Part shown: positions 3,465-35,007 of the stretch, in pieces
How positions within the stretch are numbered: position 1 is the stretch's first letter
Layout: every line of letters starts with the position of its first letter
NCBI GenBank assembly: GCA_048268845.1
Contig: JBLWUQ010000003.1
Coordinates: forward strand, 213,013 to 277,012
Direction of reading: 5' to 3'
Source of the DNA: Maritimibacter sp.
GTDB lineage: Bacteria > Pseudomonadota > Alphaproteobacteria > Rhodobacterales > Rhodobacteraceae
DNA length: 64,000 bases
Notes under the pieces: model-generated
The model's input: the letters and a program-made list of their open reading frames with translations, nothing else
The model's database searches: none
What the model was told of the DNA's origin: nothing
Program-made: the position numbers and the translations under genes

Positions 3465-3886
3465 CCGCGCCCGCGCCCTTGCCGCCGCTGGCCGAGGGCG
3501 AAACCCCGGTCGCCAGTTTCACCGGCAGCCGCGCGACCTATGTGCGCGAACACATCATGCTGGCGGCGATCGGTTCGGTCGGGGCGGTGGCGATCCTGAT
3601 CGCGATGGGCAACGCGCATCCCTGGACCGGTGTCGTCGGCGCGGTCGCGGCGATTGCGGCGCGCGGCTTCTACGTCGCGTCCGAACAGATCGGCATGACC
3701 TGGCACCTGACCGACCGGCGGCTGATCTCGCCCGCAGGCATCAGCGTGGCGCGCGGCGACATTGCCAGGGTGCGGACCATCTTTTCGGCAACGCAGGTGG
3801 TGACGCGAAAGGGCGACAAATACATGCTGAAATATCAGGCCGACCCCGCCGCAACCAAGGCGGTGATCGAAGGGATGGCGGCATGA
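3461..3886 (+). CDS. hypothetical membrane protein (two TM helices plus PH-like C-terminal part)
   Basis: 141-aa ORF with an ATGA overlap on the upstream ORF and strong GC3 bias. Two hydrophobic helices are followed by a beta-rich tail, resembling bacterial PH (YdbS/DUF304-type) proteins. Assignment is by architecture only. Confidence 0.6.
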   Translation: MTAPAPLPPLAEGETPVASFTGSRATYVREHIMLAAIGSVGAVAILIAMGNAHPWTGVVGAVAAIAARGFYVASEQIGMTWHLTDRRLISPAGISVARGDIARVRTIFSATQVVTRKGDKYMLKYQADPAATKAVIEGMAA

Positions 3887-4416
3887 GCGCGGCGCCGGCG
3901 GGGTGGGACGGCATCCTTGACGAGGGCGAGACCATCGTCTGGCAAGGCAGACCCGACCCGGCGTTTCACGTCGGGTTCGGCCATCTGTTCATCGCCCTCT
4001 TCGGGCTGGTCTTTGCCGGGTTCGCGCTGTTCTGGATGGTGATGGCATCACAGGCGGGCGGCGGGTTCTGGATGTTCGGACTGATCCATTTCTCGATCGG
4101 TGCCGCCATGGTTTTCAACGCGGTCTTCGGTGAGACGATCCGGCGACGCGGCACATGGTATACCCTGACCACCCGTCGCGCCTTCATCGCGACAGACCTG
4201 CCGATCAAGGGCAAGAAGCTGAAAAGCTACCCGATCACTGGCATGACGCCGCTCGACTACATCGACGGGCCGCTCGCCACGATCCGTTTCGCCGAGGAAG
4301 TGCGGCGCGGCAGCAAGGGCAGCCGCTACAGCGTGCCGGTCGGGTTCGAGCGGATCGAGGATGGCGAAGCCGTCTACAAGGTGTTTCGCAAGGTTCAGGA
4401 GGGAACGGCGGCATGA
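3883..4416 (+). CDS. hypothetical membrane protein (two TM helices plus PH-like C-terminal part)
   Basis: Track ORF 3406-4416. ATG 3883 overlaps the preceding stop (ATGA) and gives MSAAPAGWDGILDEGETIVWQGRP..., then two TM helices and a beta-rich tail. The upstream extension would overlap the previous gene. Confidence 0.6.
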   Translation: MSAAPAGWDGILDEGETIVWQGRPDPAFHVGFGHLFIALFGLVFAGFALFWMVMASQAGGGFWMFGLIHFSIGAAMVFNAVFGETIRRRGTWYTLTTRRAFIATDLPIKGKKLKSYPITGMTPLDYIDGPLATIRFAEEVRRGSKGSRYSVPVGFERIEDGEAVYKVFRKVQEGTAA

Positions 4417-29468: not shown

Positions 29469-31106
29469 ATGCGCCTCGCCACCGTTTCCCTACTCGCCCT
29501 CATCGCCGCCTCGCCCGCGCTGGCCGACGAGGTGTTTTCGCAGGCTCCGGTCTCGGCCGTCACCGTCTATCCGCAAGGGGCCGAGATGACCCTGCGCGCC
29601 ACGGTCGATCTGCCGACGGGCGAGCACCGGGTGTTTCTGCCCTATGCCGGGGTTGACGACCTGACCGCGCTGCCGCGCATCAAGACCTCGCAAGGCGTGG
29701 CCATCGGCGCGCTCGGCTTTCGCCGCGCCATGAGCGTGGACCGCGACGCCCTGTTCACCGCGCCGCAGGCCGCCGCCTTTGCCCGGATCGAGGCGCTGGA
29801 CGACGCGATATTGACCAAGGAAGACGCGATTGCCGAGGCGCGGGCGAATGTGCAGGCGCTCGACGCGCGGCTGGCGTTTCTCGCGGCGGTCAAGCCGGGC
29901 GAGGAGACGACCGCCGAAACCCTTCTGGCGCTCGCCAACACGATCACCACCGAGACCGCCGCCGCGCAGGCCGGCAAGGTTGCCGCCAGCGCCGCGCTGC
30001 GCCCGATGCTGGACGAGCTTTCCGACCTGCAAACCGACCGCAAGGCGGCGCAGCGCGATTTCGACCGCCTCGCACCCCCCGCCGAAGTCAGCGACATGCT
30101 GGTGGTCGATGTGGTGGTAGACGCTGCCGGACCGGTCACGCTGGAACTGACCGAATTGACCCGGAACGCGATGTGGGAGGTCGATTACGACCTCGACCTG
30201 CACCGTGATGCCGGCAGCATCGAGATCGCGCGCAAGTTGATCGTGGTTCAGGAAACCGGGCGGGTCTGGACGGACGCCGCGCTGACCCTTTCGACGGCGC
30301 GTCCGGGCGAGGCGGTCGGACCGTCGCCCGTCGACCCCGATCAGGCGCGCATCTACGAGGAACTGCCACTGGTGCGCGGTGGCATCGCCGCGCCGGCGCC
30401 GATGGCAGAGCGCGAAATGGCCGCCGATACGATGGGCGCGGTGATGGAGGAACCGAAATTCGCCACGGCAAGCCTTCAGGTCGACGGGCTGTCGCTGTCC
30501 TATGTCTATCCCGATCCCGTCACCATCGCCTCGGGCGAGGCCGCCGAGCTTGCGCTCGATACTCTGACGGTCGATGCCGATCCTTCGATCCAGGCCGCGC
30601 CACGCTATGACGAGACCGCTTTCGTGATGGCCAGGCTGACCAACACCACCGGCGAGCCGATCCTGCCCGGAATGGCAAATATCCTGCGCGATGGATACCT
30701 TGTCGGGCGCGAGAGCATCGCGCTGATCCCCGCCGGGGCCGAAACCACCCTGCCCTTCGGCCCGATCGAAGGCATCCGGCTTGAAACCATCTTCGCGCGC
30801 AATGCCGAGGGCGATAGCGGCATCATCGCCCGCTCCAACACCCGCGAACAGCAGATCACCTTCACCGTCGAGAACCTGACCGACGAGGCGCAGGAGGTGC
30901 GCGCGTTTTTCCCGCTGACCTATTCCGAGCAGCAGGACCTGCGGGTGAAGGTGACGGCGCAGCCGCAACCGGACGAGACCGACATCGACGACAAGCGCGG
31001 CGTTTCGGCCTGGGATCTGTCGCTGGCGCCGGGCGAAACCAAGCGCGTCGAGATCACCGTCTCGCTGGGTTGGCCGGAGGGACAGATGCTGAACTGGTAT
31101 CCCTGA
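29469..31106 (+). CDS. secreted DUF4139/DUF4140 domain-containing protein
   Basis: 545-aa ORF with signal peptide MRLATVSLLALIAASPALA. The N-terminal VTVYPQGAEMTLRATVDLPTGEHRVFLP and a central coiled coil match the DUF4140/DUF4139 (mucoidy-inhibitor-like) layout, recalled from memory. Confidence 0.75.
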   Translation: MRLATVSLLALIAASPALADEVFSQAPVSAVTVYPQGAEMTLRATVDLPTGEHRVFLPYAGVDDLTALPRIKTSQGVAIGALGFRRAMSVDRDALFTAPQAAAFARIEALDDAILTKEDAIAEARANVQALDARLAFLAAVKPGEETTAETLLALANTITTETAAAQAGKVAASAALRPMLDELSDLQTDRKAAQRDFDRLAPPAEVSDMLVVDVVVDAAGPVTLELTELTRNAMWEVDYDLDLHRDAGSIEIARKLIVVQETGRVWTDAALTLSTARPGEAVGPSPVDPDQARIYEELPLVRGGIAAPAPMAEREMAADTMGAVMEEPKFATASLQVDGLSLSYVYPDPVTIASGEAAELALDTLTVDADPSIQAAPRYDETAFVMARLTNTTGEPILPGMANILRDGYLVGRESIALIPAGAETTLPFGPIEGIRLETIFARNAEGDSGIIARSNTREQQITFTVENLTDEAQEVRAFFPLTYSEQQDLRVKVTAQPQPDETDIDDKRGVSAWDLSLAPGETKRVEITVSLGWPEGQMLNWYP

Positions 31107-31126
31107 TCTCGCCCGTCCCTGACGCT

Positions 31127-31140
31127 TGACGTCGACGTCA
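31127..31140. promoter_or_regulatory. 14-bp perfect palindrome TGACGTCGACGTCA
   Basis: Self-complementary over all 14 nt. It lies about 20 nt after the DUF4139 stop and is followed by TCTTTTCC. It could be a protein-binding site or a very short terminator hairpin. Confidence 0.3.
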
Positions 31141-31431
31141 TCTTTTCCGGGTCGCAATCACAGGTTGCGGCCCGGATGTCGTTTTTGGGGTGGTCCAACC
31201 GATTCTCTGGCGGTGCCGAAAGGGAATCATCTGGTGATTCTTCCTGCCACATCTGTGGCAAAATTTGGCGAAACATGGCGGTGATGCGGTCACGAAACGC
31301 TCTTGCGGGGGAAAAAAGGTGTCAAAATGGTGAATCGCCACCTTCTTGCCGCATTTAAGCAGAATTCCCGCCCGATTCCGGGATGATCTTGTTCATATCG
31401 GAACAGAAATAAGACGACGGAAGACAAAAAT

Positions 31432-31605
31432 ATGGCTGCCACCATAGACACCAAGCAGACCGCAAGGATCCTGGTCTTCAAACGCCGCTCCAAGGGCGTC
31501 GTCCGGACCGATCGCAAGCGCCGTCTGCCACCGATCACCAGCGCCGAGATCGATACCATCTTCGACAACGCGCAGGAGAAAAACACCCGAGACCGGGCGG
31601 TCTGA
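31432..31605 (+). CDS. small basic hypothetical protein (57 aa), first of three tandem small ORFs
   Basis: Below the 60-aa track cut-off and found by reading the sequence. ATG 31432 has GGAAG about 9 nt upstream. Translation is MAATIDTKQTARILVFKRRSKGVVRTDRKRRLPPITSAEIDTIFDNAQEKNTRDRAV. Mostly G/C-ending codons. Confidence 0.4.
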   Translation: MAATIDTKQTARILVFKRRSKGVVRTDRKRRLPPITSAEIDTIFDNAQEKNTRDRAV

Positions 31606-31686
31606 CGACCGGATCGCCCGCTGCCAACCACTCACGAGTATGCCACTCACACATCGGCCAACTGGCCACAATACTGGGGAAGAACT

Positions 31687-31881
31687 ATGAAAAACAACGT
31701 CATCGCCTTCGACTGCACCCGCCTTGCCGACCGCCGCGCCGCTGCCACGGACGCCGCCACCGGACTGCGCGACAACGTCGTCTCCATCACCGAATTCCGC
31801 AACCGGATCCGCACGCTCCGGACCGCCTCGGGCGTGTTCTTCACCAGCCGCGTTCTCTGCACCTTCGGCAGCGTCGCCTGA
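31687..31881 (+). CDS. small hypothetical protein (64 aa), second of three tandem small ORFs
   Basis: Track ORF with GGGGAAG upstream of the ATG and strong GC3 bias. It shares an R-x-x-VV-S-I core with the next ORF. Confidence 0.5.
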   Translation: MKNNVIAFDCTRLADRRAAATDAATGLRDNVVSITEFRNRIRTLRTASGVFFTSRVLCTFGSVA

Positions 31882-31928
31882 GCGAAAAAGACAGATCCCA
31901 TTCTTGCGAAAACCCAGGAGAAACCCAG

Positions 31929-32147
31929 ATGACCAACGTCACCCTTCTTGAAAAAGCCCGCCGTGGCCGCGCAACCGCAATCGCCTCGCTGAACTCCGGC
32001 CAGAAGCGCTCCGGCGAGGTCGTTTCGATCTTCGACAGCGCCTTCGAGCGGTCGCACAACCACGCTGTTGTCCCGGTGCGCACCCATGTCATCGAGTTCC
32101 GCTCGACCCGCAGCGCCGTGGCCGCAGAACGCGGTCTGGCCGCCTGA
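31929..32147 (+). CDS. small hypothetical protein (72 aa), third of three tandem small ORFs
   Basis: Track ORF with AGGAGA 7 nt upstream of the ATG and strong GC3 bias. It is followed by stem-loops and a T-run. Confidence 0.5.
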   Translation: MTNVTLLEKARRGRATAIASLNSGQKRSGEVVSIFDSAFERSHNHAVVPVRTHVIEFRSTRSAVAAERGLAA

Positions 32148-32156
32148 TCCCGCGAC

Positions 32157-32207
32157 GGCAGGCGCATTGCGCGCCTGCCCGCCTCGCTCGCGCGAAAGGC
32201 GAGTTTT
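32157..32207 (+). terminator. tandem stem-loops with T-run closing the small-ORF unit
   Basis: GGCAGGCGC-attgc-GCGCCTGCC (9-bp stem), then CTCGC-N11-GCGAG followed by TTTT. It lies in the convergent gap before the cdsA-like stop. Confidence 0.45.
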
Positions 32208-32211
32208 GCCT

Positions 32212-33159
32212 TCAGCCCGAGCCCCAGAAAAACCGCACCAGGTGAAACAGGACCGGCGCCGAGAACACCACGGAATCGAGCCGGTCGATGAACCCGCCCT
32301 GCCCCGGTATGAGATGGCCCCAATCGCGCACGCCCTTGTCGCGCTTGATCGCCCCCATCACCATTCCGCCGCCATAGCCGACCAGCGACACGGTGGCCGA
32401 CATCAGGCCGGCCTGCCAGATGTTGAACGGCGTGATCCACCACAGAAGCGTTCCCATCGCCGTGCCGATGAGCACCGCGCCCACCAGCCCCTCCCAGGTT
32501 CGCGAATGTGGCACGTTTGGCGCAATGCGGTGCCGCCCGATGATCCGTGGCGCGACGAAATGCGCCATGTCGGCGGCCTGCACCACGATGGTCAGCCAGG
32601 CGATCAGCAGGATCGCCTTGTGCGAATAGCCTGGAATATCGAGCCAGAGCAGTGCCGGGGCATGTGAGGCCGCAAAGATGCACAGCATCAGCCCCCACTG
32701 GGTTTCGGCCACCCGCGTCAGAAACCCCGAGGTGTCGCCGCGCAGCACCGCCAGCACCGGCAGGAACAGGAAGGCATAGACCGGGATGAAGATCGTCATC
32801 AGGTTGATCCAGCCGGCCGCCACGAACACGTATTGCAAGGGCAGCGCCACGAAGAACGAGAACATGAGAACCCAGTGATCGGCGCGGCGCTTGGCGGTCA
32901 GGGTCAGGAACTCGCGCAGGGCGGCGAAGGACAGGATCGCGAACAAGACGACCACCCCGATCCGGCCAAAGAGTGCCGCCAGCGACAGCAGCACGACCAT
33001 CGCCCACCATGTATTGATCCGGGTGAACAGGGTTTCGATCAGGATGCTGTTGCCTTCGGGCACGACCCAGCGCCGCAGCGCGCCCGCCCCAAGCGTTGCG
33101 GCGGTCAGGGCAAGGAACAATCCGGTCAGAAGCGCGGCAAAGTCGGCGTGGACCATCAC
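32212..33159 (-). CDS. phosphatidate cytidylyltransferase family protein (CdsA-like, variant signature)
   Basis: 315-aa polytopic ORF. The C-terminal IKRDKGVRDWGHLIPGQGGFIDRLD matches the CDP-diglyceride synthase signature, except Q replaces H in PGHGG and RD replaces KD. Confidence 0.85.
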   Translation of the reverse strand: MMVHADFAALLTGLFLALTAATLGAGALRRWVVPEGNSILIETLFTRINTWWAMVVLLSLAALFGRIGVVVLFAILSFAALREFLTLTAKRRADHWVLMFSFFVALPLQYVFVAAGWINLMTIFIPVYAFLFLPVLAVLRGDTSGFLTRVAETQWGLMLCIFAASHAPALLWLDIPGYSHKAILLIAWLTIVVQAADMAHFVAPRIIGRHRIAPNVPHSRTWEGLVGAVLIGTAMGTLLWWITPFNIWQAGLMSATVSLVGYGGGMVMGAIKRDKGVRDWGHLIPGQGGFIDRLDSVVFSAPVLFHLVRFFWGSG

Positions 33160-33829: not shown

Positions 33830-34480
33830 TCAGACCGGCACGAAGTTCCCGCTCTCGGCATTGTAGCACATCAGATCGCCCTCACCGATGTCGTGCCACA
33901 GACCGTGCAGGGTCATCACCTCGGCGTCGACCGCCTCCTTGACGAAGGGAAAGGTCATCAGGTTTTCGAGCGACACGATCACCGCCTGTTTCTCAAGCTC
34001 CGCGACACATTCCTCGCCCGACCGGTTTTCCTTGATCCGGTCGTAGCCGGGCTTGAGCAGGTCCATCCAGCGGCCCGTGAAACTGGTATCCTCGGTCAGC
34101 TCCGGGGCCGCACCCGTGGTCATGTCATAGAACCCGCGCACACCGCCGCAGCTCGAATGTCCGATCACGATGATATGCGCGACCTTCAGCGCCGCGACCG
34201 CGTATTCGATCGTTGCCGAGGTGCCGTGCCGCTTGCCGTCGGGCTCGTAGGGCGGCACGAGGTTGGCGATGTTGCGGTGGATGAAGAACTCGCCCTGATC
34301 CGCACCGAAGATCGAGGTGACGTGGACGCGGCTGTCACAGCACGAGATGATCATCGCACGCGGATGCTGCCCCTCGGAGGCCAGCCGGCGATACCAGGAC
34401 TTGTTCTCGGTGTAGGATGTCGCCTTCCAGCCGTGGTAGCGATGAACGAGATAGTTTGGAAGTGGCCGCGCGTGTTTCAT
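33830..34480 (-). CDS. beta-class carbonic anhydrase
   Basis: 216-aa ORF with the CCDSRV and GHSSCGG zinc-ligand motifs. Confidence 0.92.
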   Translation of the reverse strand: MKHARPLPNYLVHRYHGWKATSYTENKSWYRRLASEGQHPRAMIISCCDSRVHVTSIFGADQGEFFIHRNIANLVPPYEPDGKRHGTSATIEYAVAALKVAHIIVIGHSSCGGVRGFYDMTTGAAPELTEDTSFTGRWMDLLKPGYDRIKENRSGEECVAELEKQAVIVSLENLMTFPFVKEAVDAEVMTLHGLWHDIGEGDLMCYNAESGNFVPV

Positions 34481-34620
34481 GATCTCGCCTGACTTTCGTG
34501 AATCCTGTGCCGTCTAATATGTCGGTTTTTCGAGAAATTCGAGCGATTTATGATTGTCGCGGAAACCTTTTCTTGAGGCAGACTTGCCATGGTGCGGCGG
34601 GTGTCGGGGGGAATTGGGGT

Positions 34621-35007
34621 GTGAAAGTGATTGCCGTTTTGAGACTACGCCATGAAGAACCGGTCCGGCTAGACCGGGACCAGTTGGAAATCATGTATCG
34701 CAATCTTGGTCCGGCCGGGGCCGACAAGGTTGTCAACCACGCGCTCGAGGATCTTGCGGCGGCGCTGTCCTGTGCCGGCAAGCAATACCGCAGCCACAGG
34801 TTCGACCAGATGCGCGCGACGCTCCGGGCGCTGATCGGGGTGTCGCGCCAGCTTGGGCTGACCTCGACCGCCCGCGTCGCGCGCGATGTGCTCGACCTGT
34901 CGGACACGACCGATGCGGCGGCGCTCGCCGCGACGATGGCGCGACTGGAACGGATCGGGGAAAGCTCGCTCATGGCGATCTGGGACTTGCAGGATCTTTC
35001 GATCTGA
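34621..35007 (+). CDS. hypothetical helical protein
   Basis: Track ORF 34498-35007. Its 5' part lies in AT-rich promoter-like sequence, so the start is placed at GTG 34621 (uncertain). The Ala/Leu/Arg-rich sequence is predicted helical. No family recognised. Confidence 0.45.
   Translation: MKVIAVLRLRHEEPVRLDRDQLEIMYRNLGPAGADKVVNHALEDLAAALSCAGKQYRSHRFDQMRATLRALIGVSRQLGLTSTARVARDVLDLSDTTDAAALAATMARLERIGESSLMAIWDLQDLSI

Follow-up and report, generated by a model that had tools for sequence, protein, structure and literature searches.

The locus described here lies in a 64-kb window of Maritimibacter sp. DNA (the window being the whole stretch that was analyzed), in the gap between the stop codons of a gene for a DUF4139 protein and of a convergent cdsA-like gene (31107-32211; Table 1). 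The gap holds three small open reading frames (ORFs) on the plus strand, which an earlier note on this DNA had picked out by eye; we find them at exactly the coordinates it gave, and call them genes A, B and C. Shine-Dalgarno-like sequences (GGAAG, GGGGAAG and AGGAGA, as read in that note) are present 6-12 nucleotides (nt) before each start, and both the stem-loops and the T-run described downstream of gene C are found by a terminator scan and by folding of the terminator region (minimum free energy -34.5 kcal/mol, fold z = -2.2). On the other side, the DUF4139 gene has its own terminator, whose 12-bp stem is present in 5 relatives; among these the loop varies, and the stem shows G-C/G-U changes and one compensatory pair. 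Given terminators both upstream and downstream of the small genes, the three ORFs constitute their own transcription unit. To judge from these features and from comparison with relatives, A, B and C are shown to be an independently transcribed three-gene operon encoding very basic proteins of 57-72 amino acids (aa) with no confident predicted fold.

That the three ORFs are genuine genes is documented in several ways. The G+C content at their third codon positions in frame (GC3) is 0.81 for A, 0.89 for B and 0.79 for C, with 0.82-0.87 in the neighboring genes, so that the G/C-ending codon bias seen earlier is indeed native. All three exact proteins have already been called in public assemblies, without a name. 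Among relatives, third codon positions hold most of the differences, and the Nei-Gojobori ratio of nonsynonymous to synonymous change (dN/dS) spans 0.07-1.17, is mostly 0.2-0.7, and falls below 1 in 29 of 30 pairs. For gene A the ratio is 0.07-0.52, with differences by codon position of 59/84/162; for gene C it is 0.22-0.70; and for gene B it is 0.28-0.69 in nine of ten pairs and 1.17 in the closest pair, where there are very few changes. Indels within the ORFs keep the frame, as in gene C, where the difference between 72 and 65 aa is an in-frame 7-codon indel, whereas the spacers shift by changes of 1-2 nt that are not multiples of three (80, 81 or 83 nt between A and B; 47, 48, 49 or 50 nt between B and C). 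The codon-level conservation check proposed in the earlier note thus comes out in favor of coding.

Could the ORFs nonetheless be spurious, and the region a non-coding regulatory RNA, such as a small RNA, riboswitch or leader, or else the site of a real gene on the minus strand? A long conserved untranslated leader precedes gene A, antisense ORFs of 146 and 113 aa are open, and the A-B spacer is well conserved, all of which would suit such a reading. However, a search of the region against Rfam gave a single chance-level match (E = 0.94, 14.8 bits versus a gathering score of 50), and there is no fold or covariation signal. The antisense frames have a lower GC3 (0.55-0.72) and are frameshifted by the 1-2-nt spacer indels; neither they nor the ORFs in the leader keep their frame among relatives. 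The plus-strand ORFs, with their codon-position-biased change and low dN/dS, are intact in all loci with coverage. We reject the spurious-ORF reading as extremely improbable.

Table 1. Features in and around the gap between the DUF4139 and cdsA-like genes (window coordinates; a dot marks features without an assigned strand)
Feature	Position	Strand	Basis or remark
DUF4140/DUF4139 protein gene	29469-31106	+	Pfam; upstream flank
Rho-independent terminator of the DUF4139 gene (hairpin 31146-31176 plus T-run)	31146-31186	+	Terminator scan
Conserved AT-richer leader, read as promoter/operator plus short 5´ untranslated region	31227-31431	+	Identity among relatives
Perfect 16-bp palindrome TGCCACATCTGTGGCA, candidate operator	31245-31260	.	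Conserved only in the Maritimibacter-like clade; unique in the window
GTG-N6-CAC palindrome GTGAATCGCCAC with AT-rich center, candidate dimeric-regulator site	31330-31341	.	18- and 7-sequence leader alignments
Module TTGCCnCAATTnGGC (31346-31361) ... cGCCnGAnTC	31346-31378	+	Conserved across genera (leader alignment)
TGTTCatatcgGAACA inverted repeat with almost invariant ATCGGAAC block	31390-31405	.	27 nt before the ATG
Gene A, 57 aa	31432-31605	+	ORF list, orthologues, dN/dS, GC3
Hairpin GGCCaactGGCC in the A-B spacer	31656-31667	+	Spacer alignment by eye
Gene B, 64 aa	31687-31881	+	ORF list, orthologues, dN/dS, GC3
Gene C, 72 aa	31929-32147	+	ORF list, profile search, dN/dS, GC3
Terminator region common to the convergent cdsA-like gene	32152-32211	.	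GC-rich hairpin 32152-32182; second stem plus T-run from 32186-32204 onward
CTP_transf_1 (cdsA-like) protein gene	32212-33159	-	Pfam; convergent downstream flank

Two details of the coding sequences deserve mention. Genes A and B are in one frame, and the 81-nt spacer after the TGA of A (31606-31686) is open, which could mimic a readthrough product; in two relatives, L002 and L016, this spacer is 80 nt long, which breaks the frame, and the spacer is therefore non-coding. In addition, gene A begins with four codons, ATGGCTGCCACC (MAAT, 31432-31443), that are identical at every nucleotide in 18 of 18 distinct loci, synonymous sites and the rarer GCT included; beyond this start, protein identity drops to 32-46% across loci. 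The invariance of these codons suggests a constraint at the nucleotide level, such as a role in RNA pairing or in the start of translation.

A, B and C are three previously undescribed families with no significant matches in Pfam, NCBIfam, PHROGs, PADLOC or the PDB. The three window proteins have no Pfam match at E <= 1 and no NCBIfam match, and 28 family-C members have no Pfam match at E <= 0.1; PHROGs and PADLOC returned chance-level matches only (best E ~0.016-0.02), and profile searches of the PDB with all three gave nothing below E ~1. We found no description of the families, their motifs or their function in the libraries searched or in a limited literature search. Family A has an invariant MAAT start, followed by phi-L-P/V-F-basic, RTD, RRLP and SSAEIExFFDHA, and a C-terminal AA or AV. 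Family B combines an N-terminal NVIAF-x3-R with a central DNVVS(I/L)xx(W/F/Y)RxRxRxRRT, the nearly invariant element GVFFTTxVLxTxG and Ala as the last residue. The N-terminal basic helix of family C, LLEKARxGRxxALASL, is followed by NVVSIFDxAF, NVIxFRSxR and a C-terminal phi-Ala-Ala; K9, R11, R14, S33 and F35 are invariant in the alignment of this family, and the terminal AA is nearly so.

The same three ORFs are found at the same place in five relatives, with 61-80% amino-acid identity to those of the window and lengths of 57 aa for A (62 as called in L016 and L017), 64 aa for B and 72 or 65 aa for C. The close relatives comprise the metagenomic loci L001, L002, L016 and L017 together with L014, L015 and L018, of which L014 and L018 are Maritimibacter fusiformis. 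Word-indexed searches returned only a few close relatives, and the wider distribution comes from profile methods: an exhaustive HMMER search covered family C, a metagenome scan used family B, and loci were scanned locally with hidden Markov models (HMMs) of A, B and C. The family-C profile yielded 26 proteins at E <= 1e-3, among them 25 small members (60-89 aa), one of which is a close relative of the query. Members with a named source are from Sinisalibacter lacisalsi, Maritimibacter dapengensis and uncultured Maritimibacter, all labelled 'hypothetical protein'. The sole large match, P0030 (594 aa), carries about 12 copies of DLNGDGDxxDxVLHIFDxSTG and matches via a VxHIFD-like motif only; we judge it to be an unrelated repeat protein.

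Wherever a fetched locus extends across the region, it carries A, B and C in order and on one strand, as A-B-C or, in most more distant lineages, as B-C-A-B-C; the clade of the window has A-B-C only. Comparison of the DUF4139/cdsA-like junction, as the earlier note had suggested, revealed the cassette intact in every related locus with coverage. The surrounding gene order is the same in all loci: asd, DUF4139, the small genes, cdsA-like, acyltransferase, carbonic anhydrase and M17 peptidase, with DUF4139 or cdsA/plsC occasionally missing from the locus. At one locus (L023, positions 3533-4183; JGI 3300032274, a 3.06-Mb contig), A-B-C stands directly between asd and the carbonic anhydrase gene, with DUF4139, cdsA-like and plsC absent from the locus, so the cassette is independent of those neighbors. 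Conversely, the cassette is absent from a Roseovarius metagenome-assembled genome whose non-syntenic DUF4139 gene is 37% identical; a contig scan with the DUF4139 protein found only M. fusiformis and that Roseovarius genome. No copy of the small genes turned up among plasmids (tblastn) or in two scans of viral contigs. The families appear to be restricted to a subclade of the Roseobacteraceae that takes in Maritimibacter, Sinisalibacter and uncultured relatives, and on this comparative evidence the cassette is old, has been inherited vertically and is specific to the chromosomes of this clade.

The five-gene arrangement is seen in L020 (2844-4243), L022 (2825-4237), L024 (3781-5168), L025-L028, L032-L033 and L035-L038. 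The extra upstream pair in these loci is a distinct subtype, with W(I/L)GRAMPRRTP...GEIA in B1 and PEFHSxR...LVLTDPxAA in C1.

The earlier note had called the region an AT-richer island, a term that suggests foreign DNA, and we considered whether the cassette could have been horizontally acquired as a prophage remnant, a toxin-antitoxin or defense module, or a set of precursors for bacteriocins or for ribosomally synthesized and post-translationally modified peptides (RiPPs). There are local G+C dips, the genes are small, tandem and unannotated, and gene B encodes a hydrophobic C-terminal segment. The compositional claim holds for the leader (0.52 over 31107-31431 and 0.48 in its conserved 205 nt) and for the spacers (0.59 between A and B, 0.49 between B and C), but not for the ORFs, at 0.62-0.67 versus a window mean of 0.66. 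Codon usage is native by GC3, and the same chromosomal position across several genera largely refutes an island. Furthermore, phage families, defense models, plasmids and viral contigs gave no significant match; no modifying enzyme, transporter, integrase or repeat flanks the genes at any locus; and proteins A, B and C have no signal peptide and no hydrophobic stretch of transmembrane length. RiPP and bacteriocin clusters would be expected to have adjacent modification, protease or export genes, in contrast to the housekeeping-type neighbors listed above. Foreign origin, in any of these forms, is rejected as scarcely credible.

The earlier note had also read the three ORFs as a tandem set of paralogues, derived from a single small gene, that align colinearly around a basic-x-x-VV core and a second hydrophobic element with F. 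Both motif types are real by our alignments: they persist across orthologues and are common above all to B and C, in both of which VVSI occupies residues 31-34. B and C also have a like N-terminal layout (NV-phi-x-phi ... basic ... (D/E)NVVSI), and 30-nt DNA repeats that encode the common motifs are 80% identical between A and C and 71% between B and C. The pentapeptide N[VI][VIT]x[FIL], which was defined after inspection of the data, occurs 28 times per 1000 aa in B, 18 in C and 0.2 in the window's other proteins. Tests against shuffled sequences separate the pairs. Single-sequence Smith-Waterman alignments are above shuffles for A-C (z = 3.4) and no better than shuffles for A-B (z = -0.4) or B-C (z = 0.25), while a column-shuffled profile test gives z = 0.4 for A-B, 4.4 for B-C and 4.1 for A-C, and between-family HMM scores are above those of shuffles for B-C and A-C. 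With shallow alignments, hhalign gives P = 9e-4 for B-C (a weak match, colinear in the N-terminal half, probability 23%), 3e-4 for A-C and 0.16 for A-B. With deeper alignments, the best B-C match is non-colinear, joining B 2-14 with C 51-63 over 13 columns (NVIAF..R, P = 1.3e-3), the A-C match joins A 37-48 with C 28-39 over the 12 columns of the xIFDxA motif (P = 0.011), and for A-B there is nothing (P = 0.18).

As deeper alignments leave only these motif matches of 12-13 columns, a single colinear paralogous family is unsupported. What stands of the claim are the short motifs common to B-C and to A-C; A versus B is at chance level in all tests, and the colinear alignment falls away. The strongly conserved parts are moreover unique to each family (MAAT and RRLP in A, GVFFTTxVL in B, the LLEKARxGR helix in C), and the duplicated copies in B-C-A-B-C stay recognizably B or C. 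Descent of all three from one small gene is thus unlikely. By the same comparisons, A, B and C are separate orthologous families, each keeping its own features across genera, and B and C may be anciently related via a repeated short module.

The isoelectric points of the proteins are 11.2, 11.1 and 11.5 for A, B and C, with 10-14 Lys plus Arg residues in each, and this raises the main rival for their mode of action, that they are Arg-rich RNA- or DNA-binding proteins whose hydrophobic motifs drive oligomerization. Invariant basic residues (K9, R11 and R14) lie on the predicted N-terminal helix of C, and basic runs mark the other two families (RxRxRxRRT in B, RKRRLP in A). There is also a precedent in CcaF1 of Rhodobacter sphaeroides, a small, basic, RNA-binding DUF1127 protein (PMC8034643), whose role theirs could resemble. 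However, no protein matches DUF1127 or any nucleic-acid-binding domain, contacts with other proteins are another mode of action of small basic proteins, as between DUF1127 proteins and PhoR (PMC12501420), and nothing at the locus links the small genes to an RNA. By analogy with CcaF1, nucleic-acid binding could be considered possible but doubtful.

The resemblance to DUF1127 proteins is a general one. These, too, are very small, Arg-rich and alphaproteobacterial, are often multi-copy, and act as regulators via RNA or protein contacts (PMC8034643, PMC12501420), but their motifs differ and their Pfam model gives no match, and A-B-C are three families in one operon at one site with a narrower distribution. 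Ribbon-helix-helix, NepR and HemP proteins are similar in size, and family C has a short strand-like N-terminal segment followed by a basic helix; however, there is no profile match, and the AlphaFold2 model of C lacks the second helix of a ribbon-helix-helix fold. The absence of Pfam and NCBIfam matches bears out the motif-based exclusion of these families, and of DUF1127, in the earlier note. The AlphaFold2 monomer models that it called for, run for C and B, have low confidence: for C, a predicted local distance difference test score (pLDDT) of 63, with helices at 6-24 and 34-41 only; for B, a pLDDT of 61, with a single long and uninformative helix.

The C-termini are more distinctive. In family C, 33 of 34 distinct sequences end in AA (LAA in 15, VAA in 5, IAA in 4), and these tails are kept even though the 10-25 residues before them differ freely in both sequence and length. 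Endings in AA or AV are found in 14 and 6, respectively, of 22 family-A sequences, and all but one of 35 family-B sequences end in Ala. As background, 56 ordinary ORFs in the window include 2 that end in AA and 10 that end in A. ClpXP recognizes the ssrA tag chiefly by its C-terminal Ala-Ala carboxylate, and similar Ala-Ala degrons mark substrates among the proteins of the cell (PMC7652416). By analogy with this precedent, the conserved Ala tails make regulated proteolysis a reasonable inference. The phi-Ala-Ala terminus of family C is almost invariant, as in ssrA-like degrons, and A and B have Ala termini; the likeness is limited to the terminal residues, and in the window itself the last two residues are AV for A and VA for B.

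The region upstream of gene A, described in the earlier note as a 325-nt palindrome-rich leader, falls into two parts, of which one is the terminator of the DUF4139 gene and the other a conserved stretch of about 200 nt without RNA-structure signal. Pairwise identity among five relatives is 0.29-0.53 in 31107-31226 and 0.71-0.92 over 31227-31435, where conservation matches that of the flanking housekeeping genes and exceeds that of parts of the ORFs. The leader gave a fold z of -0.17, no compensatory pairs among five sequences and an RNAalifold energy of -1.8 kcal/mol over 18 distinct leaders, so its conservation is at the level of DNA or linear sequence. We read the 3´ ~200 nt of the leader, from this pattern of conservation, as a promoter/operator region and not a structured RNA. 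The GTG-N6-CAC block is kept across genera, for example as GTGGAATTCCAC in Sinisalibacter, as is (C/T)ATCGGAAC(G/A)GAAA at 31396-31409, and the TGTTCatatcgGAACA/ATCGGAAC region could be a -10/start-site region or an operator. Where five genes are present, three conserved blocks of the leader also precede the additional B-C pair at unchanged spacing, so the regulatory module was duplicated with the genes or answers to the same factors. Elsewhere in the window, none of the leader motifs was found that could point to a regulon.

The conserved block also contains a GANTC site (31374-31378), 17 bp upstream of the (C/T)ATCGG block, that 16 of 18 leaders retain with a central base switching between A and T, as expected if the CcrM methylation site itself, and not a particular sequence, were under selection. 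GANTC sites cluster here (31201, 31224, 31236, 31332 and 31374, that is, 5 in 174 nt versus 1.16 per kb overall), and the leader is the only place in the 64 kb with at least four in 160 nt. In Caulobacter, GcrA activates sigma-70 promoters with GANTC near -20 or at +2 to +30, preferring YGAKTCK (PMC4647560). The leader resembles such promoters in its conserved GANTC within the presumed promoter, its GANTC cluster and the lack of a good sigma-70 -35 element. A difference is that CGATTCC, the site in the window, deviates from YGAKTCK; on the opposite strand, several relatives have CGATTCG. These sites offer a lead toward control of the cassette by methylation and thereby by the cell cycle.

Other candidates for the leader fared poorly. 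A scan of the region with the sigma-70 consensus gave no match, and by eye there is no convincing EcfG (GGAAC-N16-CGTT), RpoH, sigma-54 or CtrA (TTAA-N7-TTAA) site in the leader. Its TGATCT-N15-AGAAA does not fit the RpoE promoter TGATCC-N15-GCGTA (PMC5036791), and TGTTC-N6-GAACA does not fit the alphaproteobacterial LexA box (GTTC-N7-GTTC). A replication origin, prompted by the GANTC cluster and low G+C, was discarded: the skew does not switch here, and what is conserved belongs to the leader of a gene, in its promoter-proximal part.

Within the operon, the A-B spacer has a stem that, by eye, is found at the same position in other genera with changed bases (CGGCAcaaTGCCG, CGGCTcaaAGCCG). This hairpin may be an intercistronic processing or stability element, or the remnant of an internal promoter. 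The spacer also has CACATCGGCCAACTGGCC at 31650-31667, which resembles the leader block CA(C/T)ATCGGAAC and the block CATCGGCAAnnnAGATTGCC in the B1 leader. Outside the gap, there is a second G+C dip (0.54-0.56) at 34300-34749, a divergent intergenic region between the carbonic anhydrase gene (33830-34480, minus strand) and the next plus-strand ORF; that ORF, of ~104-169 aa depending on the locus, is syntenic everywhere and has no Pfam match in any locus.

We suggest that A, B and C are co-expressed and probably short-lived small regulators that act through common linear motifs, a function inferred from the features above. In this model, the conserved operon encodes labile proteins that act jointly and are tightly controlled at the DNA level, and we regard it as the best overall explanation, with a probability of roughly 0.45. 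The proteins would act together, as they are always co-encoded in a fixed order and carry the same short motifs. These motifs (NV-phi-x-phi, phi-phi-x-F-basic and xIFDxA) are hydrophobic, strand-like and set in Arg-rich segments, and could allow the regulators to pair mutually and/or to dock onto one common partner or nucleic acid. Proteolysis would keep their levels low, nearly all members ending in Ala and family C in a phi-Ala-Ala like that of the ssrA tag. Expression would be controlled through the unstructured promoter/operator, with its GTG-N6-CAC palindrome and a CcrM-type GANTC at the presumed -35, which would tie transcription to the methylation state of the DNA and hence to the cell cycle.

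Several points weigh against this explanation. Every functional step is drawn from sequence features, with no link through homology. The motifs that the families have in common are short and were in part chosen post hoc, and kinship within families inflates the z-scores. The low pLDDT may come from shallow alignments (4-5 sequences) and not from true disorder. An Ala terminus is also the likeliest one by composition, Ala making up 13% of residues, and of the window's three proteins only C has an AA ending (LAA), with A terminating in RAV and B in SVA. Finally, the placement of GANTC at -35 is a guess, there being no recognizable sigma-70 promoter, and the misfit of CGATTCC to the GcrA preference (PMC4647560) counts here as well.

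A bolder version of the model would make the cassette a lineage-specific, cell-cycle-gated control module, in which three ClpXP-labile micro-proteins expressed from a methylation-sensitive GANTC promoter mimic the docking peptide of a hub with their NV-I-A-F-R and I-L-P-F-K motifs, and titrate its partners. We consider this highly unlikely as it stands. One candidate for the mimicked peptide would be the C-terminal peptide of FtsZ, D-I-P-A-F-L-R-R; this peptide, the TonB box, the beta-clamp motif QL[SD]LF and the ClpX N-domain peptide LRVVK all bear some resemblance to the motifs, and none fits well.

No part of bacterial genomes is annotated as poorly as the small proteins. The kind of system described here, lineage-specific small regulatory proteins, is familiar, and the genes have already been deposited as 'hypothetical proteins'; what is new is the combination of three motif-sharing families in fixed order, ssrA-like tails and a strongly conserved control region with GANTC. 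The three families have been co-inherited as a unit long enough to diverge to 32-46% identity, and they offer testable features in their common linear motifs, their tails and a highly conserved control region with a retained methylation site. These should be of moderate interest to researchers working on small proteins and on alphaproteobacterial regulation. Should the proposed explanation fail, the families would still merit Pfam/NCBIfam names, since they will otherwise be missed or labelled 'hypothetical'. Should it hold, A-B-C would be a compact new regulatory module in marine bacteria of the Roseobacter group and a useful case of motif-based function without a fold.

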